Below are positions 2,152 to 39,515 of a DNA stretch of 64,000 nucleotides, in pieces; the stretch's first letter is position 1; every line of letters starts with the position of its first letter. Under the pieces are notes generated by a model that did no database searches, was not told the DNA's origin, and was given only the letters and a program-made list of their open reading frames with translations. The position numbers and the translations under genes were made by a program. Source of the DNA: Candidatus Eiseniibacteriota bacterium (lineage in GTDB: Bacteria > Eisenbacteria > RBG-16-71-46). Location of the stretch: the NCBI GenBank assembly GCA_016223045.1, contig JACRPT010000146.1:1760-65759 (forward strand). Reading direction: 5' to 3'.

Positions 2152-3117
2152 TCAGCGTTTGGCTAAAGTTCGCCTTAGCTCCTTCAACAGCTTCGCGGTC
2201 TCCTCAAGACTTCGGATCAGGCTAGCATCACCCTTCAACTCGGCGAGCGTCGTCCACGGATAGCTCCGAATGCTTTCCGCAAGCGCCTGGATGTCTCCAG
2301 CGAGCCCGAGTCGTTTCTTCGTCGGGGCAGGAGCCAGCTTCAGAAGCGCAGAGTCGATTGAGCCGGAATCCGACAAGAATTCGTCGCGCGCCACTGGATC
2401 CCGAAGCACCTGGCGGAGCTTTCGGATGTCCTTCGAGTTGCTGATCTGCTGGTCGTTCACTCTCCGTATGATCGCGTTGAGCGACTCCGTGGTCAGGAGC
2501 TTTCGGTTGAGGTTCTTGATCTCGCGTGCCCAGGTGATCGAAGTTGCCGGATCAGGCAAGTTCGTCAGCTTCTCGGACAGCTCGTAAATCTCGACGAGCT
2601 TGTCCAGCTCCCGCACCGTGATTCCGAGCATGTTCGCGGCGCTCGCGCGCCCTACCAAGTCGACAAGGCGGTACGCAACCATCTCTTTCTCTTTCGCGTC
2701 CCATTCCCGCCGCTGACGATGGATGTAGATCCAGACGCGCAGGCGCTCCTCTTCCGTCAGCGTCTGATCTGTCACCTCGGCGGCGATCTTCCGGTACTGG
2801 TCCTTCTTCTGAACCTCGACGAGGACCTTCGAATTCGTCCACCGCCGATCTCCGTCGATGATGCTGAATTTCCCCGGATGGTCAGGGTGTGGCTCCAGCA
2901 GCAACGGCTCGAAAATGCCTTCGTTTGCCTCGATCTGTCGCTGAAGTTCAGGGTCCTCCTTGGGGCCCAACCGCGGTTGCTTCGGGTTCGGCAGAACGTC
3001 GTCCAGGTCAACGGTCGTGCGATACGTCCTGAGAATCGTTCGCCCCAGCCGGCGGTCCTGCCAGTGAACCCCCGGCGGTTCAATCTTCGCGGCTTCTGTG
3101 GACATGGATATCCTCAT
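2152..3117 (-). CDS. ParB-like nuclease-domain protein (ParB/Sulfiredoxin N-terminal domain)
   Basis: Carries the VLPNPKQPR ... IIDGDRRW signature of the ParB N-terminal domain. Local GC is much lower than the flanks. Its start overlaps the next gene by 4 bp. Confidence 0.7.
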   Translation of the reverse strand: MRISMSTEAAKIEPPGVHWQDRRLGRTILRTYRTTVDLDDVLPNPKQPRLGPKEDPELQRQIEANEGIFEPLLLEPHPDHPGKFSIIDGDRRWTNSKVLVEVQKKDQYRKIAAEVTDQTLTEEERLRVWIYIHRQRREWDAKEKEMVAYRLVDLVGRASAANMLGITVRELDKLVEIYELSEKLTNLPDPATSITWAREIKNLNRKLLTTESLNAIIRRVNDQQISNSKDIRKLRQVLRDPVARDEFLSDSGSIDSALLKLAPAPTKKRLGLAGDIQALAESIRSYPWTTLAELKGDASLIRSLEETAKLLKELRRTLAKR

Positions 3118-4340
3118 GCGCCGCCGCCGGTAGCGGCCGGGCGGTTCTCAAGGATCGCGCTGACCTCGGTCTCGACCTGTCTCACGACATTGCGCAGGCG
3201 CGTGACCATCTTCCCACGCTTGAGCCACACCTTGTCGTGCTCGCGCTTCTCCTCGACATCGAGCTCCGAGAGTTCACCCGCCAGCCGCGCCGTTTCCTGC
3301 TGGTGCTGCCGATACTCGTCGGAGGCGATGTACTTGTAGAGGAGATCGCGCTTCTCGTTTCGCTCGCTCAGGCTGAGCTTGAGGACGCGCACCCTGACCA
3401 TGGCGTTCCGCAGCAGCTCCACGATCTCGCAGACCCGCGCCCGACTGACGACGATGACGCCGGTTTCCTCGTCGAGGTACAGCTCCTTCTTGCCGCTCGG
3501 GAACACGGTGGTGGCGAGCACGGCGTGCTCCGCCTTGGCCGCTATCTGGTCCTCGCGCAGCTTAGTGACGTAGCTGTTCTGCCAAGCCTGCCGATTCTTT
3601 GAGTCGATGACGATCGTGCCGCATGCCGTGCCCTTGTGCAGCACCTTGTGCCGGATGTCAGCTCCGGGCTCTCCGCGCTTGACGCGCGTGATGTCGTCTC
3701 CGGTGAACGCTTCGCGAAGCGCCTCGTAGGCGTCGAGCTCGGCACCCTCCCCCAGCTCGTCGGCCGTCTTCCGCTGGAGCTGGCGGGACAGGGTATCCAC
3801 CTTCTGCTGAAGCTGCCCCTTCTCGCGCTGATGCTGCGCTTGGAGCTTGAGCAACTGGTCGGTGCGGTCTCTCTCGAGCGCCGTGCGCTGCTGCTCAAGG
3901 TCGTTCTTCTGCTTCACGCTCACCGCCTCGAGCTCCTTGATCTTCGCCGCGCCCTGGTCACGCTCCGTGATAAGCGCCCCCAGCTTCTTATCCATGTCGC
4001 CCCGGACCCGTGCCTCCACCGTCGCTGCCGCTTCCTTTCGAATCCCCGCTTCTCGCTGCTCTCGCTCGGCATTGAAGGCTGCGATCTTCTTCTCCGCCTC
4101 GGCCCGCAACGCAATCTCGGTGCTCTGCTTGTGCGCCTCGAGCTCCTGCTGCATGCGCACCCGCTCCGCCGCGAGCCTCTTGCGCTCCTGATCAGCGATG
4201 CGCGCCTCGATCTTCTCGAACTCCTCCCTCGAAATGACGTTTCCGCACCACGGACAGCTCTCGGTGGCAGGCTCTGGCTCGAATGCAACCGCTTCGCTCG
4301 ACATCCTGGGACCTCCAATTGCTGAGTCGATAGATGACAA
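3114..4340 (-). CDS. DUF2130-like coiled-coil protein with N-terminal CxxC zinc ribbon
   Basis: N-terminal CPWCGN motif, a long charged coiled-coil region (repeated E/K/R/Q/L heptads), and a C-terminal globular domain. Co-oriented with and overlapping the ParB-like gene. Lower GC. Confidence 0.6.
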   Translation of the reverse strand: MSSIDSAIGGPRMSSEAVAFEPEPATESCPWCGNVISREEFEKIEARIADQERKRLAAERVRMQQELEAHKQSTEIALRAEAEKKIAAFNAEREQREAGIRKEAAATVEARVRGDMDKKLGALITERDQGAAKIKELEAVSVKQKNDLEQQRTALERDRTDQLLKLQAQHQREKGQLQQKVDTLSRQLQRKTADELGEGAELDAYEALREAFTGDDITRVKRGEPGADIRHKVLHKGTACGTIVIDSKNRQAWQNSYVTKLREDQIAAKAEHAVLATTVFPSGKKELYLDEETGVIVVSRARVCEIVELLRNAMVRVRVLKLSLSERNEKRDLLYKYIASDEYRQHQQETARLAGELSELDVEEKREHDKVWLKRGKMVTRLRNVVRQVETEVSAILENRPAATGGGA

Positions 4341-4535
4341 GGACCGAAAGGGACCCTATCGGTCCCCAAGCACGCGGTCAAGCGGATTCAGTCGGCCCTC
4401 CCCCCGTGCCGCGGGACCGTCGGCGGCGCGGCCGTGCCTTGGCGCGGGCATCGGGGGGCTGGAAACGTCCCACTCTCCAGGAAGCTGAAATCTCCGGGCT
4501 GGACACCCCCCCCGGCGGGGTGCTACAAGAGCTCC

Positions 4536-5162
4536 ATGGAGAAGTTTTCTTCCTCAAAATCCGCAAAGGTGAAATCTGCCCCTCGCCAGCAGCTCAAGAA
4601 CAGCCAATTCGCCCTGCAACTGACTGAGGTCCGCAAGGTGATCTACGCCTGCGACAACCCCCGCGACCGGACCCTAGTCGCGGCGCTCGCGGCGACCGGG
4701 ATGCGGCGTGCCGAGGTCGCTGCGCTCGACGTCCGCGACGTGGACCTCGAGGCGCGTCGGGTCACGATCCGGTCGGGCAAAGGCGGCAAGCAGCGCACCG
4801 TGCCCATCACCGAGGAGCTGGCGAGCGACCTCCGACTCCTGATCGGCAAGCGCGCCACAGGCCCGGTATTCCTTTCAAACCGCCGTGGACCCTTGACCAC
4901 CCGCCAGGTCAATTACATCGTGGCGGATGCTGGGGTGCGAGCCGGAGTGAAGAACCCGAACCCCGCGAGCCACGGCCGGATCACCTGCCACCTGTTCCGG
5001 CACACGTTCGCCCGCCATTGGAAGCAGCGCGGCGGCGACATCGAGAGCCTCGCGCAGATTCTCGGCCATGCGAGCAGCGCGACGACCGTGGACCTCTACG
5101 GCACACTGAGCATCGACGACGTGCAGGAGCATTACGACAGGCTCATGGAGACAACCTCGTGA
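4536..5162 (+). CDS. short tyrosine recombinase (phage-integrase catalytic domain only)
   Basis: Has the catalytic RxxR...HxxR (LFRHTFARH) and LGHASSATTVDLYG (catalytic Tyr) motifs of the Xer/integrase family. It lacks an N-terminal core-binding domain. ATG at 4536 follows a non-coding-looking leader. The stop overlaps the MTase GTG start (GTGA). Confidence 0.75.
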   Translation: MEKFSSSKSAKVKSAPRQQLKNSQFALQLTEVRKVIYACDNPRDRTLVAALAATGMRRAEVAALDVRDVDLEARRVTIRSGKGGKQRTVPITEELASDLRLLIGKRATGPVFLSNRRGPLTTRQVNYIVADAGVRAGVKNPNPASHGRITCHLFRHTFARHWKQRGGDIESLAQILGHASSATTVDLYGTLSIDDVQEHYDRLMETTS

Positions 5163-7480
5163 GCAGCACCAGACCCACTCAACCCGTCGCAGACCAGCTC
5201 GCGCTCCTTGACGACCCGACACGCGCCGGCAGCGCACCCGCCGCTAGCGCCGTGCCCGCGTACACCACGTACTACAAGACGCTTGTCGCGCTCCGTGAGG
5301 AGTTCCACCGCACGGGCCGGTACGACGACGCGAACACGAAGCTCGATGAGATCGTGAAGCTGCTCGTGATGCGCTTCCACGAGGAGCGGCGGCATGCCCG
5401 CGGGCTCGAGGACCGATTCTCCGCCGATTTCCTTAGCCGCCTTGCGGCGAAGACGCACGGTGATCCCGCGCGGGTTGCCCGCGCGCTCCGTACCCTGTCG
5501 CAGGAGACCCTGCGCTCGCCTGAGTACGCCAATCCCGATGGAACCAGCGTGTTCGGCGCGGACCCGTGCCTCAGTATTCAGCCCACAGACGATGCCTTCG
5601 CTGTTCAGATCGTGAACGCGGTTCGAGCGTTGGCTGTCCCGACCGGCGCCGCGTCCGGCGCGTTCGACATCCTCAACGAGTCCTTCGGGCACTTCGTCAG
5701 GGACAGCTTCCGCAACCACATGGAAGACGCGCAGTACATGACTCCGCAGGAAGTCGTGGAGGCGATGGCCGCCATCGCCCTCGCCGACGTTGAAGCCGAC
5801 TCTGCATCCGTGAAGCGCCTTTTGGAGGCGAGCGGTGAGGAGCCTTTTCTCGTTCTTGATCCGACCTGTGGGGTTGGTTCGTTCCTTGTCGAGGCCCTCC
5901 GCCGCATGCTTCGCGTCTTGCGCGACCGTGGGCTCGACACAAACACCGTCGCTGCGCTGACTGAGGCGTACCGGAATGCGTGCGTTCGCGGCCAAGACAA
6001 GGTTGACCGGATGGTCCGGCTCACGAAGCTCAACCTCATGCTCTTCGGTGGTGGTGGCGGATCCGTCTGGCAGGGAAACAGCATCCTGAACGGCTCGGCG
6101 CTCGACGATCTCCAGGGGCGCGTGGACTTGATCCTCACCAACCCCCCCTTCGGCGCCCGTTATCGGCTCGGAGACGTGCTGGCGCATCAGGCGCGCGATC
6201 GGTACCCCATGCTTCATGACCTAGCACAGGCTGGGCGCGCGCCGACCAGCGTCGATTCTGAGGTCGTTCTCCTAGATCGCTGCCTTTCACTGCTCCGCCC
6301 GGGCGGCCGCCTACTCATCGTCCTCCCCGACAGCGTGGTATCTGGCCGCGGCTTCGTCGCTGTCGCTCGTGAGTGGATTGAAGCAAGAGCGGACCTCATC
6401 GCCGTCGTAGAGCTACCGGCGGAGACCTTTGCGCAAGCCGGCACCCGCACGAAGACGTGCTTCGCGTACCTCCGAAAGCGAGACGTTTGTCCAAGTCGTA
6501 TCGGGCGCGTTTTCATGGCAGTTTGTGACGACATCGGGTTCCGCGTGGTGGCACGCGCCGGAGCCTCGCTCAAGATCCAAGATGGGACCAACCAGCTCCC
6601 CGCCATTGTCGATGCGTACCTTGACACGTCCTCCCGCGGTTCAGGCGAGCACGCCGCTCCACTCGTTGCGTCCCGTGAACCGTCGGCTGTCTGGGTTCCA
6701 CGCGACTCGTTGTTGAATGGCCGATGGACACCCAACTTCTACCGCGCCAGGCGGCTTGAGGCGCTCACGACACTCCGCGACCTGCAGGGCTCCGGGTACG
6801 AGCTCCACACGCTGGCATCCATCGCACGCCTCGCTTCAAGATCTCGTCGAAGGGTGCCGGTGCCAGCGGGCGCCAAGACCATCAGCGTGCTGCACGTGTC
6901 GCAGGACGGCGCGATCAACTTTCGCGAGGTAGCGTCGTACTCTCCGAAGTTCCCCGGCTTGCCGTGCCGCCCCGGCGACGTTCTCATCTCGAAGATCAAC
7001 CCCCACATCCCCCGCGTGTGTGTGGTCCCGGAGGCGGAGTATCCCCTCGCCTGCTCGTCCGAGTTCGAGATCCTAGAACCTGTAGGCACGCTCGAATCGC
7101 ACTTGCTAGCCGCCATCCTAGTGTCCCCGTCCGTCCAGACACAGATCGAGTGCTTGACTTCCGGTACGTCCTCTTCACACAACCGGATCAAGGACACTGA
7201 ACTTGCCGAGGTGCTCGTCCCCCTGCCTCGCCGGGGATCCGCGTTGGATCAACGTTTCACGGAGATCGGCGCTGCATTGCGGCGGGCCACCGCGCAGCGG
7301 TACGAGGCGGATGCGCTCGCCCTTCAGGAGCTGAAGGCACTCGCCGGCGCGTTCAGCGTAGCAATCAGTGACCGCATCGACCCGGAGGTCACGGAGCGAA
7401 CCGGAGCACTTGAATCTGCCCCTGCGCGTCTTCCTCGGCCTGGTAGATCTTCCGCGACGCCGGCTCGACTTCCAGTGTGA
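5159..7480 (+). CDS. N6-adenine DNA methyltransferase fused to a C-terminal HsdS-like target-recognition domain
   Basis: AdoMet motif I (LDPTCGVGSFL) and motif IV (NPPFG), typical of gamma-class amino-MTases. The C-terminal 250 aa resemble an HsdS TRD (PGDVLISKINPHIP ... VPLPRRGSALDQRFTEI). GTG start at 5159 is coupled to the recombinase stop. The 5018 start was rejected. Confidence 0.8.
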   Translation: MSSTRPTQPVADQLALLDDPTRAGSAPAASAVPAYTTYYKTLVALREEFHRTGRYDDANTKLDEIVKLLVMRFHEERRHARGLEDRFSADFLSRLAAKTHGDPARVARALRTLSQETLRSPEYANPDGTSVFGADPCLSIQPTDDAFAVQIVNAVRALAVPTGAASGAFDILNESFGHFVRDSFRNHMEDAQYMTPQEVVEAMAAIALADVEADSASVKRLLEASGEEPFLVLDPTCGVGSFLVEALRRMLRVLRDRGLDTNTVAALTEAYRNACVRGQDKVDRMVRLTKLNLMLFGGGGGSVWQGNSILNGSALDDLQGRVDLILTNPPFGARYRLGDVLAHQARDRYPMLHDLAQAGRAPTSVDSEVVLLDRCLSLLRPGGRLLIVLPDSVVSGRGFVAVAREWIEARADLIAVVELPAETFAQAGTRTKTCFAYLRKRDVCPSRIGRVFMAVCDDIGFRVVARAGASLKIQDGTNQLPAIVDAYLDTSSRGSGEHAAPLVASREPSAVWVPRDSLLNGRWTPNFYRARRLEALTTLRDLQGSGYELHTLASIARLASRSRRRVPVPAGAKTISVLHVSQDGAINFREVASYSPKFPGLPCRPGDVLISKINPHIPRVCVVPEAEYPLACSSEFEILEPVGTLESHLLAAILVSPSVQTQIECLTSGTSSSHNRIKDTELAEVLVPLPRRGSALDQRFTEIGAALRRATAQRYEADALALQELKALAGAFSVAISDRIDPEVTERTGALESAPARLPRPGRSSATPARLPV

Positions 7481-26515: not shown

Positions 26516-28266
26516 ATGCGCCCGCTCCTGAAGCGCGTTCCTCCCGTCGCGACGCTGGCGCTGCTGCTCGCGACGTGCGTCCCGGCGGCCGCCGCGCCGG
26601 CGGGATCCGCCGACGCGCAGTTCGAGCGCCTCGCCCACGAGTACCTGGACGGCTGGCTCGCGCGCCGTCCGGACCTGGCGACGCGGCTCGGGCTCCATCG
26701 CGAAGACGCGCTCCTCTCGCCTGTGTCCCAGGCCACGCTCGCCGAGGACGCCGCGCGGGCGCGTTCTCTCCAGGCGCGTCTCGCCGCCATCCCGCGCGAT
26801 CGGCTCTCGTTCGAGCGCGCGCTCGACCATGACCTGCTGGCCGCGCGGCTGGCCCGCGAGCGGCTCGATCTCGAGGTGCTGCGTCCCTTCGAGCGCGACC
26901 CCGGTGCCTATGTCGAGCTGGTGGCGGGCTCGGTGCAATCGCTGCTCGAGCACGACTCCGCTTCGCCGTGCTCGCGCGTGCGCGCGGTGGCGGCGCGGCT
27001 GGACCTGGTGCCGGAGGTGCTGCGCGCGGCGCGCATCAACCTGCGCGACCCGTCACGGCTCGCCATCGAGGAGGCGATCGGGCGCTTCGAGGGCACGCTC
27101 CGCCTCTACCGCGAAGCGCTGCCCGCGCTGGCGGCGGGCTGCCGCGACGATCGCGCCCAGGCCGACCTCGCCGAGGCCGACACCACCGCGATCCGCGCGG
27201 TCGAGGACTTCCTCGTCACCCTGCGCGAGGACCTGCTGCCACGCGCGACTGACGACTTCGCAGCCGGCGACTCGGCACTGCGCATCCTGATCGCGACCGA
27301 TGAGCGGGAGCCGATCCCGCTCGATTCGCTGCGCGCGGCGGGCGAGCAGGAGATGGACTCGACGCGCGCCCGCATGGCGCGGCTCGCCGGGCGCATCGCG
27401 CCGGGCGGCGGCGTGGCCGCGGCGCTGGATTCACTGCGTGCGTACGCGCCCACCGACACGGCGCTGGTCGCGGCGCTCTCGTCCGCGGTCGCGGGGGTGC
27501 GTGCCTTCCTCGGGACGCACGCGATCGTGACGCCGCCCGGGCGCGAGAACCTGCGGGTGCGCGAGGCCCCGCCCTTCGCGCGCGCTGCCGACGCCGTCAC
27601 GCTGGACCTTCCCGGACCCTGGGAACGCGAGGGGGCCGAGGCGGGCCTCGAGGTGGTCCCGATCGAGCCCGGCTGGGGCGAGGAGCGCAGGCGCGAGCAC
27701 CGGTCCTCGTTCGACCCGTGGTCGGCAGTCGTGGCCGCCATTCGCGAGGCGGTGCCCGGGCGCTACTATCAGGCGCTGGCGGCGCGGCGCGCGCCCTCGC
27801 GACTGCGCCAGGCGGTGGACTGTGCCGAGAGCGTTCGCGGCTGGGCGGACTACTGCGAGGCGATGATGATCCAGCAGGGCTTCGGCGAAGGCGACCCGCG
27901 CTACGAGTTGGCGCAGCAGGCGATCGCCCTGCGGCGCCTCGGGCGCTTCGTCGCGGCCATCGAGCTGCACACGCGGCAGGTCACCCTCGAGCAGGCGGCG
28001 GCGATGCTCGAGGCCCGCTGTTTCCTCGCGCCCGCCGAGGCGCGGCGCGAGGCGCGCCGCGCGGCGCGCGACCCGGACGCCATCGCGGGCACGTGCGGGC
28101 GCTGGCGCATCCTGGCGTTGCGCGGCGAGCTCGAGCGCGCACTCGGGCCCCGCTTCCAGCTCGCGGCGTTCCACGATGCGTTCCTGCGCCCGGGCCGCGT
28201 GCCGCTGCGGGCGGCGCGCGCGGCGCTGTTCCGGGAGCTGGCCGGCGCGCCGGAGGGACGGAAGCC

Positions 28267-28270
<4 letters not shown>
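26516..28270 (+). CDS. secreted DUF885-family protein
   Basis: Signal peptide. GWADYCE and HT/Q-rich motifs resemble DUF885 (a putative metallopeptidase-like family). 584 aa. Confidence 0.65.
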
Positions 28271-33348
<5,078 letters not shown>

Positions 33349-33510
33349 AACTGCGTGTATTCTCGCGGTCTGTGGGGTTTTCGCCCCGCGCATCTCGTCA
33401 AAATCCTCGAATCGCCACCCCGCGACACACCGCGCCACCGGGCCGGCGCTCGTCTGTCAATCCTCTGCCACACAACGGCTTGAAGACATGATCGCCGCGC
33501 GCATGCGGAC

Positions 33511-33526
33511 CGGCACGGTCCTCGCC
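33511..33526 (+). promoter_or_regulatory. weak candidate sigma-54 promoter cGGCAC-N5-TcGC upstream of the small secreted ORF
   Basis: cGGCACggtccTcGCc has correct GG-N10-GC spacing, about 50 bp upstream of 33578. Degenerate. Confidence 0.25.
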
Positions 33527-33577
33527 CTGTGAGGTTCACGTCCCCCTGGACCGTCGAACCCTCACCCGGAGACTCCC

Positions 33578-33883
33578 ATGCGCCTCGCCCGACTCCTCGC
33601 ACTCACCCTCACCCTGCTCTGCCTCTGCGTCGGCGCCGCCAGCGCTCAAATGGGCGTTCCGCCGACCACGGGGGGGACCAGCCTCCAGCAGACCGCGCCC
33701 GAACCGACCACCTCGCCCGCCGGCTACGGCGACTGGCTCACCAGCCTCACGGCGCGACTTGGCGACCGCTTCGCCCTGGCCGCGCAGAGCTGGCTGATGC
33801 CGGTGCGCCGGCCGGTGGCGGCGGTGGCGCCCGATCGGGCCCCCGCACCGCGCGTGGCCGTGACCCCGCGCCGGAAGCCGTAG
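33578..33883 (+). CDS. small secreted protein (hypothetical)
   Basis: Signal-peptide-like N-terminus (MRLARLLALTLTLLCLCVGAASAQ). GGAG lies 8 nt upstream. The body is compositionally biased (Pro/Ala-rich), so this call is uncertain. Confidence 0.4.
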   Translation: MRLARLLALTLTLLCLCVGAASAQMGVPPTTGGTSLQQTAPEPTTSPAGYGDWLTSLTARLGDRFALAAQSWLMPVRRPVAAVAPDRAPAPRVAVTPRRKP

Positions 33884-33964
33884 ATGCCGACAGCGCTGCC
33901 CGTGTGCACTTGGGCAGCGCCCGCTCGCATGGAGTACCACACGCTCAAGGAGGAGGTTGTCACG

Positions 33965-34699
33965 ATGACCCGCTTCATCTTGGCACTCGTAATCGGACTG
34001 GCCCTCGCGGGGGGCACCGCAAGCGCAGCCCCCGAGAAGATCGACGCGGGCAACCCGACGTACTTCAGTGGGAACCAGCGGAACCTCCCGGTCAGCATGA
34101 CGTTGACCCCGCAGGCAGCCGTACAGTGGGCCTACACGATGCCCGCCGTACAGGCTGCGGTGCAGGAGATGCAGCGCCGGGGCTACATCGCACACCCGGA
34201 GTACGACAACGCCGTGAACGTGAACGATCCGCCTTCGACCTTCGTAACCCTGTCATTCGAAAAGCCCGGCCTCACAACGCCCTCGAACATCTCCGGTGCA
34301 CCCGCCATCATCATCGGTACGGTACTGCAACCGGATGGCACCGCGTTCACGAATGCGACGGGCGGGCTCGCCTTCGTCAACTGGGACACCGGTCTGTGCC
34401 AGAGTGCCGAAGAGTACCCGGAGTTCCAGTACAGCGACCCGAGCTTCGACGTGATGGACTACTACATCACGAGTACCGGCATCCGCCGCCCCCTCCCGCA
34501 ACCCGTGATCTTGGGCGCAACGGATTCGCCGGGCGACAAGAAGTTCCGCAAGTTCATGGGTTGTACGACCATTGTCGCCGCGGGCGCGCTCGTCAAGGCC
34601 GCGCTGACCCCACCACCAATCCCCCAGAAGGTCGTGATTGACGCGGCGCTCACGACGATCTTCGGCGCAATTGCATGCGCCAATGGCATCTTCAACTGA
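33965..34699 (+). CDS. secreted protein, paralogue A (Gly/Ala-rich hydrophobic C-terminus)
   Basis: Strong RBS AAGGAGGAGG-N8-ATG. Signal peptide MTRFILALVIGLALAGGTASA. Paralogous to 35995..36828 (shared MPxxQ..Q.RGY and FEKPG blocks). Lower GC than the flanks. Confidence 0.65.
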   Translation: MTRFILALVIGLALAGGTASAAPEKIDAGNPTYFSGNQRNLPVSMTLTPQAAVQWAYTMPAVQAAVQEMQRRGYIAHPEYDNAVNVNDPPSTFVTLSFEKPGLTTPSNISGAPAIIIGTVLQPDGTAFTNATGGLAFVNWDTGLCQSAEEYPEFQYSDPSFDVMDYYITSTGIRRPLPQPVILGATDSPGDKKFRKFMGCTTIVAAGALVKAALTPPPIPQKVVIDAALTTIFGAIACANGIFN

Positions 34700-34700
34700 C

Positions 34701-34928
34701 ATGCGCACGCTGAACGAAATCGTCTTCGGAGCCGTCAGCGCAATGCTCTGGTGGTTCCTGACCCACATCCCGCTCGTGGGCGTCGCTATCTTCGTCTCGC
34801 AGTGCATCTCGGTGGGCGTTGCCACGAAGTACCCACAGCACCCTGAGGTGTGGTGGGCCACCTTCGCTCGCGCCATCGCAGCAGGTGGGTTCTTCGCCGC
34901 AATCGGCATGCTCATGCTCCATCGGTAA
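34701..34928 (+). CDS. small 2-TM membrane protein (partner of paralogue A)
   Basis: 75 aa with two hydrophobic helices. It starts 2 nt after the upstream stop. Confidence 0.55.
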   Translation: MRTLNEIVFGAVSAMLWWFLTHIPLVGVAIFVSQCISVGVATKYPQHPEVWWATFARAIAAGGFFAAIGMLMLHR

Positions 34929-34949
34929 GGGAGACTGGAGGGTCCAAGC

Positions 34950-35462
34950 ATGCCGGGCAATGATCCTCGTGGGGGCGGCGTGACGCCCCCCGAGCAGCTC
35001 ATCCGGATGCACCGCCGCAGCCTCGTCCACGTGCTGGTGCTCCACGGCACGACGGCGGGGCGCGACCAGGTCGCGCGCGTCTTCCACCGCGAGAGCCCGG
35101 TGCGCAGCGGCCCGTTCGTGAAGCTCGACGCCGCGCGTGACGCAGACGCGCTGCACGCGGCCCTGGAGGCGTGCGTGGCGCGCGACGAGGAGGTCGGCGT
35201 GGTGCGCGAGTCGCACCGCGGCACGCTCTACGTGGACTTCGTCGGGCGGCTCCCGCTCGAGACCCAGCGCCTGCTGCTCGAGTTCTCGAAGCGCTCGACC
35301 TCCGACCTGCCGGGCGCGCGCGCCGCGGCGTGGGGCGGGCGAATCGTCGCTGGCAGCCCCAACGACCTGGCTCCCGCGGTCGCGCAGGGCCGCTTCATCG
35401 CCGAGCTCCACGACACGCTCAACAAGATCCTGGTGGACCTCGGGCAGGAAGGCGCGCCGTGA
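34950..35462 (+). CDS. degenerate sigma-54-activator-like AAA+ domain protein (pseudo-EBP)
   Basis: Aligns to the central domain of NtrC-family activators (VLVLHGTTAGRDQVARVFH vs a GESGTGKE Walker A; GTLYVDFVGRLPLETQRLLLEF vs [11 protein letters not shown]...Q..LLR; RIVAGSPNDL...GRFIAELHDTLN vs RIIAAT...G.FREDL..RLN). It lacks the Walker A Lys, the Walker B DE and the GAFTGA loop. Confidence 0.5.
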   Translation: MPGNDPRGGGVTPPEQLIRMHRRSLVHVLVLHGTTAGRDQVARVFHRESPVRSGPFVKLDAARDADALHAALEACVARDEEVGVVRESHRGTLYVDFVGRLPLETQRLLLEFSKRSTSDLPGARAAAWGGRIVAGSPNDLAPAVAQGRFIAELHDTLNKILVDLGQEGAP

Positions 35463-35845
35463 CGCGGGCGACGCGCGGCCAAGTCCTGCTGCTCACCGCG
35501 CGCCCCGCGGCGCATGGGAAGCTGGTTCGCGCGCTGCGCGGGCTGGGCGCACGCGTGAGCGTCCCGCACGCCGCGCCGCAGACGCTGCGCCTGATCGCCC
35601 GCCGGCCCACCCTGGTCCTCGTGGACCTTGCCAACGGCGCGGGCCTCACGCCAGAGATCGTGGACCTGCTCAACCGCCGCCGCGATCCAATCCTGGTCCT
35701 CGCGCTGCACGACGGCAGTTTCGGGCTGCGCGAGCGCGCGGTCGCCGGGCTGAGCGTCGCCGGCTTCTGCCCCGCGCACGACAGCCAGCCGATCGTGAAC
35801 GTGGTGGCCGGCCTGCGCGCCGGGGGCGCCGTCGCCGTCCACTGA
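35459..35845 (+). CDS. receiver (REC)-like domain protein lacking the N-terminal acidic pair (pseudo-receiver)
   Basis: GTG overlaps the upstream stop. The alternating beta/alpha pattern VLLLT ... TLVLVDL ... ILVLALHDG resembles CheY-like receivers, but the N-terminal DD pair is absent. Confidence 0.45.
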   Translation: MTRATRGQVLLLTARPAAHGKLVRALRGLGARVSVPHAAPQTLRLIARRPTLVLVDLANGAGLTPEIVDLLNRRRDPILVLALHDGSFGLRERAVAGLSVAGFCPAHDSQPIVNVVAGLRAGGAVAVH

Positions 35846-35994
35846 GCCGGCTTGACTTGGGTTGTGCGGTTAGACCAGCGAGGAGGCACCGAGCATGCGG
35901 GTGGTCGCGATTGCGCTGTTGTCGCTGGCGACAGGTGGTGAACATGCGGGGGTTGGATGAAGCGGCTCATTGAGCATCCAGAGGAGGATGTCAC

Positions 35995-36828
35995 ATGAGG
36001 AAGTATGGGCGCGTTTCGATTCTTCTGATCGCTGTGCAATTGCTGGCCGGGGTCGTGGCTTGGGCACAAGAACCAGAACCTGTATTGTGGGTACCTCCCA
36101 GTCAGCGACAGCCGACGTACTGGACGAGATGGAACGGCGGGGCGCGCAACCTGCCCTATGGCTCGTCGGTAAGCTCCTCACTGGTGCTGCAGACCGCTCT
36201 TAGCATGCCGTGGATACAGGACGGGATTGGTCGAATGCAGTCCCGTGGATACTTGCGGCGGACCGATATGGACGGGGCCTCGAGTCGAGATGGGTACGCC
36301 TGCGCGGTAGTCGCCTTTGAGAAGCCGGGCGTCGCGCCCACGGCAGAGCAGCCGATCATCTTTGTGAGTACGGCGCCGATTCCCGCAATCGACCAGATGA
36401 CTGGTGACACGATCGCCGTGGTTGCGACCCAGGTGTTCGCCGGGATGGTTGCGGATTCATCGGGTACGGTCGTGACGCGCGAGACTGCCTCCGACCCATC
36501 GGAGGCGCTGACGGTGACTCCTGCGTTGAACACGACTGCGACCGTCATGCCTCTCATGAACTCGGAAGATCTCGAGTACCGCTACGCCGGCTACAGTCTC
36601 GCCAGCAATGGGGCGTCGGACCCCTATACTGCCGTCTGGAATGCCATCCCGCCCGTGTGGCGGAACTTTGGCATATATGTGGGCGTCGGCGCTGCGGCAG
36701 GATATGCCGGGGGCGGAGGATGGCTCGGCGCGGCCGTTTGGGGCGCTGCGTCGGGAGTCCTCTACTGGTTTGGGCCTCCATGCAGTTGCCCGCCGACCCG
36801 CTCGGATCCCAACGGAACCCGGAGGTGA
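35995..36828 (+). CDS. secreted protein, paralogue B (Gly-zipper C-terminus)
   Basis: RBS AGAGGAGGATGTCAC-ATG, similar to the paralogue A leader. Signal peptide. The C-terminus is GIYVGVGAAAGYAGGGGWLGAAVWGAASGVLYWF (GxxxG-zipper-like). GC about 50-55%. Confidence 0.65.
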   Translation: MRKYGRVSILLIAVQLLAGVVAWAQEPEPVLWVPPSQRQPTYWTRWNGGARNLPYGSSVSSSLVLQTALSMPWIQDGIGRMQSRGYLRRTDMDGASSRDGYACAVVAFEKPGVAPTAEQPIIFVSTAPIPAIDQMTGDTIAVVATQVFAGMVADSSGTVVTRETASDPSEALTVTPALNTTATVMPLMNSEDLEYRYAGYSLASNGASDPYTAVWNAIPPVWRNFGIYVGVGAAAGYAGGGGWLGAAVWGAASGVLYWFGPPCSCPPTRSDPNGTRR

Positions 36829-36831
36829 GCC

Positions 36832-37137
36832 ATGAATCACACTATGGACAAGCTCGCGGCGGATGCGGAAGCGTCCACCTTGACTGATGCGGCGAAGGCC
36901 AACAGGCACTTTGCGGCTGCTGCGGCTGTGGTCTCCGGGCTTGCGTGGGGGCTGCTGGCCAGGAACGCATACGTCTTCTTGTTGACCGTCGCGCTCTGCC
37001 TGAGCCACAGCCTCTACTCCGACATGAGAAGGGATTCGAAGCTCAAGCGCGCCGGCTACTCCGTATTCGTGGGGGCGTGGGTGTATCTCGTGACGTGCCT
37101 GATGGAGCACGGCGGACTGTTGAGGGCAGTCCGCTGA
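36832..37137 (+). CDS. small 2-TM membrane protein (partner of paralogue B)
   Basis: 101 aa with two hydrophobic helices. It starts 4 nt after the paralogue B stop. Confidence 0.55.
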   Translation: MNHTMDKLAADAEASTLTDAAKANRHFAAAAAVVSGLAWGLLARNAYVFLLTVALCLSHSLYSDMRRDSKLKRAGYSVFVGAWVYLVTCLMEHGGLLRAVR

Positions 37138-37140
37138 GTG

Positions 37141-38225
37141 CGAATCGCGTTCCAAACTTCGGGCCTTGGCTCGACTGTGTTGCGCTTGGTGGTCGGTTCG
37201 TCGTGGCCTGCAAGGATGGGCCGAGTGGCTACTACACGCTTGACGCGTGCAATCCGAACGACTACAGCACGATGGCCTTTGGTGGCACGTCGGCCGCAGC
37301 GCCATTCGTAAGTGGCGTCGCGGCGCTCCTGTTGAAGTTGAATCCCAACCTGATCGGCGAGGACATCCAGGAGCTGATCAACCGCACGGCGATCAATCTT
37401 TCCTACGGCGGCGGGTTTACGGACCAATACGGGCACGGCTACGTCCGGGCAGATCTTGCCAAGGCCAAGCTCGACGGACGCGAGCTGTTCCATTTCGCGG
37501 TCGGCGACGTGCCGTGGGCTCTTGGACCTTTGACGGATGTCGAACAGGCGGACGTCTCGATCTTCTTCCTCAACGTCCAGCAGTGGTTCCCCTCTCCAAG
37601 CAGCTATCCGTGCCGCCGACATCGGCTGGCGGCAACGGTGCAATGGCCGCACTCCTTTCCGGACCTGCCGACGGTGTGGACGCGGTCGAGCGGGAGCCTG
37701 GGGTGGCGGTCGATCGGACCGTCGCCCGACTACTTCGACTACGAGAAGGACGTCTATGAGGGCGGAGTAGTGGGCGGGACGGTGAGCCAGACTGGCGCGA
37801 CCTTCGAGACCTACGTCTACGAGGTCTACTACAACGGCGCATACCACTGGTGGCCGACGGATCCGGGCCATGCCCGCTTGATGATCACCGCCCTCGGTGG
37901 CTTGGCGAACACGGGAGTGCGGGATCCTGCTGTGGCCAGGGTCACCGAGGTCCGCTCGTTTCCGAATCCGGCCAGGAGCGGCGTGCAGTTCGAAGTCAGC
38001 GTTCCGGAGCGGGGTCTGGTGCGGGCCGTAGTGCTCGACGCGCAGGGCAGGCAGGTCGCGCTGGTCGCTAGCGAGATGATGGAGGCCGGCCGGAGGAGAT
38101 TCGCCTGGGGCGGGCGGATGGCGGACGGGCAGTGGGCCCCGGCGGGCGTATACTTCTGCAAGGTGCGCTCGAGCGGCGGACAGGCGGTCCGAAGGTTCGT
38201 GCTGCTGGGCGCAAACAGGGAGTAG
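37141..38225 (+). pseudogene. 5'-truncated subtilisin-like (S8) serine peptidase fragment with a T9SS C-terminal sorting domain
   Basis: Contains only the Ser-active-site block (YSTMAFGGTSAAAPFVSGVAALL). The Asp and His blocks are absent upstream, where another gene lies. The C-terminal 80 aa look like a Por/T9SS CTD (SFPNPARSG..F.V...G.V...V.D..GR.V ... GVYFCKV). Confidence 0.5.
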
Positions 38226-38326
38226 CGCGCATCGGGGTGGATGCGGGCTCTCAATGTCACCGGGAACCCGGCTGCTTGCTGGGCAGTGAGTAGGGTGCTA
38301 CGAGGCGTCGCGCGGAGGAGGTTGAG

Positions 38327-39310
38327 ATGTCGAGGAGACGAAGCTACATCGCATGGCCCGCGCTCGCGATGCCGCTGTTCCTTGGCTCATGCGAGAAGAG
38401 CCCGGTTGCCCCCGTGAAGCCCGATGGAGCGCGTCGCGACACCCTGCCACGGTTTGCGCAGGTAGACTATCCGCTCAGTTGGTCCACGGACGGGAATCTC
38501 GCGGCGTTCCGCCGCTGCGTGCCCAGCAGCTACGGCGGGCCGGGCCTCTACGTCATCCCGCGCTTCGGTGGCAAACCCCTCTACGTCCTTCCGGCCAACA
38601 TCTTCTGGCCGAAGGAGGTTCGGTTCTCTCCCGATGGCACCCGGGTTGCCGGGGTCTGGAACTTCTCGCTCTTCATCGCGGATCTCCGCACCGGCCGCGT
38701 GGACTGGCCCTACTACACGGCCAACGGAGTAGGGGGGGTGGATTGGTCGCCTGACGGGAATACGCTGCTGCTCAGCAGGCGCTTCTACCTGCCTGAGCAG
38801 CCCGAAGACTCGGCCGGTGTCCATTTGTTCGATGTTCGTACCGGGCGGGACGAGGTGTTCCTCTCCCGGGGCCGTCATGTCTATGGAGGAGACCCGCGGT
38901 GGTCGCCGGATGGGGATTCGTTCGCAGTGGTCGAGTACACCGATGGAGCGGCTCGCGTGGCAATCTATGGGCTGCGTGACAGTTCGCTCAAGATCGTCTG
39001 GCCTGGCACCCGGGCGGATGATTTCGAGAACCTGCAATGGGTGCGACCCGCCCTCTTCGGGCATCTCAAGCTGGCGGTGCGGAAGTACGTGGGGGAACGC
39101 CAGGGGTCATACTTGATGGACCCGGACGGTTCCCGCCTGGAGCGGCTGCCCTACAGTATCTTCTTTTCCGCATTGTCCCCGACGCGTCCGGAGTTGCTCA
39201 CGCTCGGCTGGTCAGGAGCGGATTCCTTGGGGGTCGTCGGGGTAGACTGGGTCTCCGAAGATCGTGTCCTGTGGGGGCGCCGGCTCACGGCGTGGCGACC
39301 GCCCCAGTGA
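38327..39310 (+). CDS. TolB-like beta-propeller lipoprotein
   Basis: Lipobox LFLGSC. Repeated SPDG/WSPDG propeller-blade motifs (FSPDGTRVA, WSPDGNTLLL, WSPDGDSFAV). Confidence 0.7.
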   Translation: MSRRRSYIAWPALAMPLFLGSCEKSPVAPVKPDGARRDTLPRFAQVDYPLSWSTDGNLAAFRRCVPSSYGGPGLYVIPRFGGKPLYVLPANIFWPKEVRFSPDGTRVAGVWNFSLFIADLRTGRVDWPYYTANGVGGVDWSPDGNTLLLSRRFYLPEQPEDSAGVHLFDVRTGRDEVFLSRGRHVYGGDPRWSPDGDSFAVVEYTDGAARVAIYGLRDSSLKIVWPGTRADDFENLQWVRPALFGHLKLAVRKYVGERQGSYLMDPDGSRLERLPYSIFFSALSPTRPELLTLGWSGADSLGVVGVDWVSEDRVLWGRRLTAWRPPQ

Positions 39311-39312
39311 CG

Positions 39313-39515
39313 CGCCTCCCGAGCAGCTCATCCGGATGCCCTGCCGCAGCCTCGTCCACGTCCTGGTCCTCGCGCTCCACGACGGCAGCCTCGGATTGCG
39401 CGAGCGTGCGGCCGCCGGGCTGAGCGTCGCCGGCTTCTGCCCCGCGCACGACAGCCAGCCGATCGTGAATGTAGTGGCCGGCATGCGCGCCGGGGACGCT
39501 GTCTCCCTCCACTGA
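39313..39515 (+). repeat. internally deleted second copy of the pseudo-EBP/REC-like gene pair (5' 60 bp + 3' 155 bp)
   Basis: The sequence matches 34977..35037 joined to 35691..35845 at about 90% identity. The junction lies in the similar ctggtcctcgcgctSCACGACGGC stretches. It encodes a chimeric 83-aa ORF. Confidence 0.65.

Follow-up and report, generated by a model that had tools for sequence, protein, structure and literature searches.

Exported bacterial proteins of the glycine-zipper 2TM type (SlyB/Pcp/YfgH; PF05433, 'Rick_17kDa_Anti') combine a periplasmic domain with a membrane-inserting hairpin of small-residue-rich helices. SlyB and YfgH have a role in outer-membrane stabilisation. 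Proteins of the SlyB type are not known to depend on a small membrane partner. Class II microcins and colicin V (CvaC/Cvi) are smaller than 10 kDa, carry double-glycine leaders and use a dedicated ATP-binding cassette (ABC) exporter of the peptidase-containing type (PCAT). In Bacillus subtilis, SdpC is a Sec-exported pro-protein with a hydrophobic disulfide-bearing segment; its membrane-protein partner SdpI is a multi-pass signal-transducing protein, and the SdpAB maturation genes are needed. In the Cdz system of Caulobacter, CdzC and CdzD (84-86 aa) have repeats-in-toxin (RTX)-like secretion signals and depend on type I secretion genes, cdzAB, encoded next to them, and CdzI is a small transmembrane immunity protein (PMC5380434). 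Here we analyse a stretch of 64,000 nucleotides from Candidatus Eiseniibacteriota bacterium (contig JACRPT010000146.1; hereafter the window), which holds two cassettes, A/A2 and B/B2. Each places a gene for an exported protein (A or B, the large proteins) before a gene for a small membrane protein (A2 or B2). By sequence comparison, the large and small proteins appear to form two linked families without earlier annotation, found so far mainly in Candidatus Eisenbacteria, and we tentatively read them as the parts of an accessory envelope complex.

An initial annotation of the window had described A and B as paralogues with common sequence blocks, and this was borne out by BLASTP, which aligned them with 30% identity over 106 aa (E=6e-10), the blocks LP.G, MP.VQ, M(Q).RGY and FEKPG included. 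Both proteins carry the family motif blocks LPxG, MPxVQxA, RGY, (F)EKPG, TxVxGG and DxSF behind a Sec-type leader. No third copy was found in the window by tblastn, and the family hidden Markov model (HMM) matched exactly the open reading frames (ORFs) of A and B. A is identical to HZC42_14330, a protein of an NCBI metagenome-assembled genome (MAG) annotated as 'hypothetical protein'. Signal peptides had been proposed for both; indeed each N-terminus is basic and is followed by a hydrophobic core of 12-15 residues (Kyte-Doolittle 2.1) and an AxA site, after which cleavage would take place. The nucleotide leaders ahead of the two ATG codons, read from the sequence as AAGGAGGAGGTTGTCACG for A and AGAGGAGGATGTCAC for B, are similar, as the same annotation had stated. 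They contain the ribosome-binding sites AAGGAGGAGG, 8 nt upstream of A, and AGAGGAGGA for B. Conservation of this GAGGAGG-N-TGTCAC leader was looked for in the homologous loci and was not found. It would be a ribosome-binding site and possibly a trace of common origin, rather than a regulatory element.

The C-termini of both proteins are hydrophobic, but of the Gly/Ala-rich character first ascribed to both, with a GxxxG zipper in B, the zipper of B held and the tail of A proved not to be Gly-rich. In the AlphaFold model of A, this tail folds into a hairpin: TPPPIPQK forms the turn between helices 189-213 and 221-243, and the flank KKFRKF is basic. Cys200 and Cys238 lie near the two ends of this hairpin, which is 9% Gly and has no GxxxG motif. 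In B, residues 224-262 contain five GxxxG motifs (within 226-254) and twelve [GAS]xxx[GAS] motifs, and the tail beyond them resembles the W..PPDT ending of B-like family members.

The extent of the large-protein family was established by an exhaustive profile search against 1.84 billion cluster representatives. At E<=1e-3 the search gave 132 representatives, and with the cut-off at E<=1e-10 it gave 65; most are 210-300 aa long. A word-indexed protein search under-reported it, giving three matches for A, only B itself for B and two matches for a 63-sequence profile. The members with a named source are all called "hypothetical" and come mostly from Candidatus Eisenbacteria MAGs, single members being labelled Gemmatimonadaceae and Limnocylindria. 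Mean column identity over the family is 18%. A signal peptide (with a lipobox in some) and a conserved domain bearing LPxG, MPxVQxA, RGY, D, (F)EKPG, PxIxVxT, TxVxGG and DxSF are common to its members. Their C-termini are of three types. About 60 members end in a Cys-bearing helical hairpin like that of A, often with the spacing Cx7C...Cx6-7C. About 50 end in a Gly/Ala-rich hairpin like that of B, often closed by W..PPDT, and 'helix-GGP-helix' tails are found among these B-like members. In P0053, P0059, P0068 and P0083 (family members are designated P, loci L), a C-terminal domain resembling FlgD_ig and the type IX secretion system (T9SS) stands in place of the hairpin, the FlgD_ig match of P0053 being weak. 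B has a relative in P0011 (49% identity, E=4e-65). Two very long proteins, P0048 (5908 aa) and P0102 (4870 aa), match profile positions 121-190 only, in 6-9 repeated stretches; these matches probably reflect a repetitive beta-rich segment rather than true membership. Scans of GTDB species genomes with A-type and B-type patterns gave no relatives, which is weak evidence because the patterns are narrow; scans of viral contigs and plasmids, also with narrow patterns, found none. In a metagenome scan, the sole match was a strain variant of the L001 locus. Among sequencing runs of the source groundwater, SRR12113394, SRR12113396, SRR12113397 and SRR12113407 carry B.

Directly after each large gene, as already described, lies an ORF for a small protein with two hydrophobic segments. 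A2 (75 aa) starts at ATG 34701, 1 nt past the A TGA, with an alternative in-frame ATG at 34683. B2 (101 aa) starts at ATG 36832, 3 nt past the B TGA, with GGAGGTGA ahead of the start. The small gene is predicted to be translationally coupled to the large gene. Direct comparison of A2 with B2 was not significant (BLASTP E=0.33); the A2-type and B2-type profiles aligned with an hhalign probability of 86% (E=5.5e-6), so that the proposed relationship of the two is seen only through profiles and intermediates. A2 is 34-36% identical to ORFs downstream of A homologues, and between B2 and the ORF that follows P0011 the identity is 48% (E=8e-18). All 10 distinct partner sequences available have SAxLWGxxTR or variants of it within their first hydrophobic segment. 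When eight partners were used to build an HMM, it recovered the two that had been left out (E=1e-11 and 2e-7) and gave no further match in six-frame translations of the window and the fetched loci (~170 kb); with this HMM, no orphan small gene was detected in the window or in any fetched locus. Overall, the small partners form a single family of 66-101 aa, with two hydrophobic segments and a SAxLWGxxTR-like motif.

In order to follow the pairing, 13 loci were examined: the two of the window and those of P0002, P0003, P0006, P0009, P0011, P0042, P0044, P0047, P0051, P0053 and P0107. A survey of co-occurrence and a check of small-ORF conservation had been suggested in the initial annotation, and both came out in favour of a real pair. 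A same-strand ORF of 66-101 aa lies just 3′ to the large gene in 12 of the 13 loci, at spacings that lie between an overlap of 4 nt and a gap of 98 nt. The exception is P0107, where the downstream ORF is at least 142 aa long and runs into the contig end. While the count of 12/13 comes from gene tables, conservation of the small ORF by position and sequence was seen in 10 distinct loci read as DNA. Similarities among the large proteins and among their partners are correlated (Mantel r=0.77, p=1e-4). Therefore, the large and small genes are inherited as a unit. The ratio of non-synonymous to synonymous substitution rates (dN/dS) was taken from L001 and L011, strain variants of one homologous locus whose DNA is 95% identical. 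The large gene gives 0.20 and the small gene 0.12, as compared to 0.08 for the adjacent purA; such values point to purifying selection on the two genes of the pair. Whichever of the three tail types the large protein has, the partner is present, also in P0053 with its FlgD_ig/T9SS-like form. This links the partner to the conserved domain and not to the hairpin or a variable 'warhead'.

Neither protein could be assigned to a described family. None of the 63 large members scanned matched a Pfam model (E<=0.01). A, A2, B and B2 searched against Pfam, NCBIfam, PADLOC and PHROGs, and eight small members searched against Pfam, gave only sub-threshold, inconsistent matches to transmembrane-rich families. 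The Gly-zipper families PF05433, PF13488, PF13441 and PF13436 were not matched by A or B at E<=1, nor by the 63 members at E<=0.01. The T9SS type A sorting domain (TIGR04183/PF18962) is absent from A and B and occurs within the family in rare variants only. The family profile had no match among PDB sequences at E<=10. These curated-family scans and PDB comparisons are in line with the initial annotation, which had not been able to assign the proteins to a family, and no housekeeping family emerged. The AlphaFold model of A, built on a 63-sequence alignment, has a predicted local distance difference test score (pLDDT) of 81.5 overall and above 90 in the conserved domain. Modelled by itself (A residues 30-168, 84 sequences), the domain reaches a pLDDT of 95.7 and a predicted template modelling score (pTM) of 0.88, and consists of two helices followed by a long antiparallel sheet. 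As modelled, this ~130-aa alpha+beta domain is well folded and has no close counterpart among solved structures.

The cassettes were then compared with the systems outlined above. Like the SlyB type, the large proteins are exported and would join a periplasmic domain to a membrane-inserting hairpin; the tail of B, the 'helix-GGP-helix' tails of its relatives and the lipoboxes of some members add to the likeness. In contrast, B matches none of the Pfam Gly-zipper models at E<=1, and the hairpin is C-terminal here, whereas in SlyB-type proteins it follows an N-terminal lipid anchor. Moreover, the A-type hairpin is Cys-bearing and lacks a Gly zipper, and there is no relationship between the periplasmic domains. 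Of the two proteins, only B repeats the GxxxG motif within a hydrophobic segment of two helices. With Cdz, the cassettes share a hydrophobic glycine-zipper segment, an adjacent gene for a small transmembrane protein and a patchy, often island-associated distribution (PMC5380434). However, A and B are 244-277 aa long, with Sec leaders and a large folded domain, A has no zipper, and there is no type I secretion system (T1SS) within ~15 kb. By their size, their Sec-type leaders and the lack of ABC or membrane fusion protein (MFP) genes in 14.8-53 kb of the window, A and B are not of the Cdz type. Class II microcins and colicin V resemble them in that the C-terminal region is hydrophobic and rich in Gly/Ala, Cys residues lie close to the ends, and a membrane protein of ~70-100 aa is encoded alongside. 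Here, the leaders end in AxA and not in GG/GA, and the neighbourhood contains no exporter. Polymorphic toxins also combine a conserved N-terminal domain with interchangeable C-terminal modules (at least three in the present family) and a small gene immediately downstream. Yet the downstream protein is of one family here, whatever the C-terminal module, rather than an immunity protein that co-varies; no recognisable toxin domain or trafficking domain was found, nor a type V, VI or VII secretion (T5/T6/T7) context. With SdpC/SdpI, the A/B pairs would have in common a Sec-exported pro-protein whose hydrophobic segment bears a disulfide, and a partner in the membrane, but in sequence and fold there is no similarity. 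Overall, the module is not a member of any family tested; in its general kind, it would join a small membrane protein to an exported protein that is tethered to the membrane.

The features of the locus are collected in Table 1. As the initial annotation had stated, GC content at the cassettes lies below the background of 0.72-0.80, but the value is 0.58-0.68 (mostly 0.60-0.64) and not the 50-60% then given. GC content at third codon positions (GC3) is 0.90-0.98 in native window genes, and the order GC3>GC1>GC2 holds in the named frames of the cassette genes. The two cassettes are 1.3 kb apart. The remnant at 39313-39515 (~200 bp) is 87-92% identical to 34984-35042 and 35667-35845 (85-86% by tblastn) and has an internal deletion. 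The low-GC3 B block, 35846-39310, is thus bracketed by direct repeats of native composition, which suggests an insertion or a duplication-deletion history. Because of their low GC3 and of the repeats bracketing the B block, both cassettes were probably acquired. The reg1/reg2 genes are absent from all other loci with the pair and are probably not part of the module.

Table 1. Coordinates and properties of the features at the A/A2 and B/B2 locus (positions in the window; GC3 given where determined for the gene).
Feature	Coordinates	Strand	Description	Basis	GC3
A	33965-34699	+	244-aa exported protein, Cys-hairpin subtype	ORF; family HMM E=5e-71	0.82
A predicted Sec signal peptide	33965-34027	+	residues 1-21, putative cleavage ASA/A	Kyte-Doolittle 2.07
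A conserved alpha+beta domain	34052-34468	+	residues 30-168	LPxG, MPxVQxA, RGY, D, FEKPG, PxIxVxT, TxVxGG, DxSF
A C-terminal hydrophobic helical hairpin	34529-34693	+		AlphaFold secondary structure; Kyte-Doolittle 1.6
A2	34701-34928	+	75-aa small membrane partner, VSAMLWWFLTH motif	small-protein HMM E=3e-26	0.82
reg1	34950-35462	+	170 aa, sigma-54 AAA core only	Pfam PF00158 E=2e-15
reg2	35459-35845	+	128 aa, receiver-like	no family match
Spacer between cassettes (reg1 + reg2)	34950-35845	+	native composition		0.92-0.94
B	35995-36828	+	277-aa exported protein, Gly-zipper subtype	ORF; paralogy to A; family HMM E=2e-45	0.71
B predicted Sec signal peptide	35995-36066	+	residues 1-24, putative cleavage AWA/Q	Kyte-Doolittle 2.06
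B conserved domain	36109-36519	+	~residues 39-175	aligns to A residues 30-103 and to family profile positions 1-220
B glycine-zipper hydrophobic region	36664-36780	+	residues 224-262, then YWFGPP...PPTRSDP tail
B2	36832-37137	+	101-aa small membrane partner, VSGLAWGLLAR motif	small-protein HMM E=2e-29	0.81
Truncated S8 peptidase	~37173-38225 (long ORF from 36945)	+	last third of catalytic domain and T9SS sorting domain		0.82
TolB-like beta-propeller	38327-39310	+	327 aa		0.78
Fused reg1 (5′ part)/reg2 (3′ part) remnant	39313-39515	+	far edge of low-GC3 B/B2 block	direct repeats D1 and D2

Around the pair, the flanking genes are different at every locus, and many are housekeeping genes: purA at L001 (P0002), prfA and prmC at P0006, a class I tRNA synthetase and TatD at L007 (P0042), urate-catabolism genes at L009 (P0011), a TonB-dependent receptor and PMT_2 at L013 (P0053), and proton-antiporter-type subunits and MoeA at L014 (P0044). 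At L001, the GC content of the pair equals that of its surroundings. In the window, the neighbours include genes for aromatic amino-acid biosynthesis, Lon protease, a D-Ala-D-Ala carboxypeptidase, a TauE-family exporter and an aminotransferase. Within ~15 kb of the cassettes, neither toxin or immunity domains nor ABC/T1SS/PCAT, type VI (T6SS) or type VII (T7SS) secretion genes were found. At P0006 (JGI contigs 3300056388 and 3300043331), the pair, of 246 aa and 90 aa, stands between prfA and prmC. These two genes are usually adjacent, and the pair may be an insertion. Beside the pair at L001 (stretch 5874-7345), the opposite strand holds an HTH_17 (excisionase/MerR-like) gene and a gene for a 273-aa multi-pass membrane protein, after which comes a tRNA-Lys at 7270-7345; the HTH_17 neighbour is present likewise in the strain variant L011. 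Integration linked to a tRNA was considered and rejected, a tRNA being nearby only at L001.

Several further features of the window were recorded. The truncated S8 peptidase keeps Pfam positions 204-288 of 288, with the Ser motif GTSAAAP present and the Asp and His regions missing, and its T9SS type A sorting domain (TIGR04183) scores 26.8 bits, where the cut-off is 23. The long ORF of the peptidase and B2 overlap in different frames, and the peptidase looks like a 5′-truncated gene abutting the B/B2 cassette. The reg1 and reg2 genes overlap by 4 nt, and reg1 has a degenerate Walker A motif (GTTAGRDQ, no Lys) and a Walker B that reads DF, without a GAFTGA loop or helix-turn-helix (HTH). Upstream of A, a fusion protein of ~1680-1876 aa is encoded on the + strand at 27718/28300-33348, with Ser/Thr kinase, AAA_16/STAND-like NTPase, TPR, GAF, sigma-54 AAA+ and HTH_8 domains. 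A 23-nt direct repeat, CGCnnCTCGTCAAAATCCnCGAA, occurs at 33300-33322 and 33389-33411, with 87% identity and a distance of 89 nt; it extends over the end of this kinase-activator gene, whose stop is at 33348, and the intergenic stretch ahead of ORF 33578-33883. The latter, just before A, encodes a 101-aa signal-peptide protein and is of native composition. Farther away, a second low-GC3 island at 2152-7480 (GC3 0.73-0.84, GC 0.60-0.66) carries ParB_N-like and DUF2130 genes and a gene for an 820-aa N6 DNA methylase, and may be a mobile or defence island.

Our preferred reading, to which we give a probability of about 0.4, takes A/A2 and B/B2 as diverged copies of one accessory envelope complex, horizontally mobile, with the small protein serving to dock or assemble the large one. 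The large protein would be exported via Sec and its leader removed, and the conserved domain would work in the periplasm or, where the tail is T9SS-like, at the surface. Because its helices are short (15-17 residues) and it has a Pro-rich turn, a basic cluster and Cys near its ends, the hairpin may dip into the periplasm-facing membrane leaflet and act as an anchor or oligomerisation element, like the glycine-zipper 2TM proteins (SlyB). The Cys pairs at the two hairpin ends could staple it on the oxidising side. The small inner-membrane protein would be a dedicated docking or assembly subunit, the module as a whole being a non-toxic heteromeric envelope complex. This reading is favoured by the invariance of the partner across tails, by purifying selection, by the housekeeping contexts elsewhere and by the lack of any toxin, immunity or export signature. 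It is also favoured by the way in which anchors interchange at the C-terminus (Cys hairpin, Gly zipper or T9SS-like domain, with lipoboxes as well in some members), as is typical of anchored extracytoplasmic domains. The initial annotation had proposed either a toxin/immunity-like or a novel envelope module; the latter is in line with the 12/13 pairing, the co-divergence and the absence of a curated family, and the former was left without positive evidence. Other observations weigh against our reading. The topology of the hairpin and of the small protein is ambiguous. The family is very sparse and fast-diverging, synteny between loci is not conserved, and the two divergent copies lie close together in low-GC3, probably acquired DNA, all of which fits conflict or competition genes better than envelope housekeeping. 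Finally, the T9SS-tailed large proteins would leave the cell, and it is difficult to see how they could then form a stable complex with a partner in the inner membrane.

Those same features keep a different function in play, and it is possible, if less probable, that the large protein is a Sec-dependent membrane-active toxin, bacteriocin-like or self-targeting, and the small one its cognate membrane immunity protein. The hairpin, disulfide-stapled in the A type and a glycine zipper in the B type, would then be the membrane-damaging element, which might be released from the pro-protein, and the small protein would shield the inner membrane of the producer. A small membrane protein directly downstream in 12/13 loci is the usual layout of a pore-former and its immunity gene. 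The GxxxG zipper of B is of the sort found in Cdz toxins and class IIb bacteriocins, and a membrane-active-looking hairpin beside a small membrane protein is as in Cdz systems (PMC5380434). The sparse, fast-diverging family with its non-conserved synteny, the two divergent window copies in low-GC3 DNA, the possible insertion of one pair (P0006) between prfA and prmC and the polymorphic C-terminus behind a conserved N-terminal domain would suit this function as well, and the exit of T9SS-tailed variants would take them away from the partner. However, no toxin or immunity family was matched in Pfam, NCBIfam or PADLOC, and hairpin-type proteins would have no route across the outer membrane because ABC/T1SS/PCAT, T6SS and T7SS genes are lacking within ~15 kb. 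Immunity proteins track the toxin domain, whereas the partner is a single family over all tails and persists with FlgD_ig. The lack of orphan small genes in the window and the fetched loci, the purifying selection (dN/dS 0.12-0.20) and the native GC of the L001 pair also argue against a toxin. A more specific version appears somewhat less probable again: a new class of Sec-dependent membrane-active toxin and immunity protein specific to Eisenbacteria-like diderms, in which a novel-fold carrier would deliver the hairpin, the SAxLWGxxTR protein would block its insertion in the producer, and horizontal spread would have given Cys-hairpin, Gly-zipper and T9SS-secreted forms. If a toxin were indeed encoded, the pair would be a new Sec-dependent antagonism module.

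The accessory, horizontally moving and sparse character of the module, together with the ParB_N-like, DUF2130 and N6 DNA methylase genes of the other low-GC3 island of the window, would also be compatible with a membrane-acting anti-phage (abortive-infection) or stress-triggered effector, whose hairpin protein the small partner would restrain until a trigger. We regard this as improbable, since PADLOC and PHROGs gave no match, the narrow-pattern scans of viral contigs and plasmids found no relatives, known defence genes are not neighbours at the other loci, and a phage sensor would be unusual in the periplasm. The position of A/A2 between the kinase-GAF-sigma54 activator gene (27718-33348) and reg1/reg2, of B/B2 after reg2, and of the reg1/reg2 remnant after the B block could suggest that the cassettes are outputs or sensor partners of sigma-54-type regulators. 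This is very unlikely and largely refuted by missing co-occurrence, such regulators being found at none of the other loci with the pair. Furthermore, sigma-54 promoter matches in the window number 19, as compared to 19.9 expected by chance, and none falls in 33350-33964 or 35846-35994, upstream of A or B. In the reg1 product, Walker A lysine, GAFTGA loop and HTH are all missing, and the cassettes are unlike the regulators in composition. High-GC DNA contains many long spurious ORFs, and BLASTP shows no significant similarity between A2 and B2, so that the small ORFs or the paralogy might be thought chance features of GC-rich DNA. This is refuted by the conservation of the small ORF (10 distinct loci read as DNA, 12/13 by gene tables), by its dN/dS of 0.12 and by the specificity of the small-protein HMM, and codon-position GC fits the named frames; the chance of an artefact is negligible.

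If A/A2 and B/B2 do represent an accessory envelope complex, they would add two linked new families to a phylum seen in metagenomes only, in the form of an exported protein with an obligatory small membrane partner. Strict pairing and interchangeable anchors would make this a clean, testable system, which could show how a stapled or glycine-zipper hairpin tethers an extracytoplasmic domain to membranes. Well delimited and experimentally tractable, the module should also be useful for annotating Eisenbacteria genomes.

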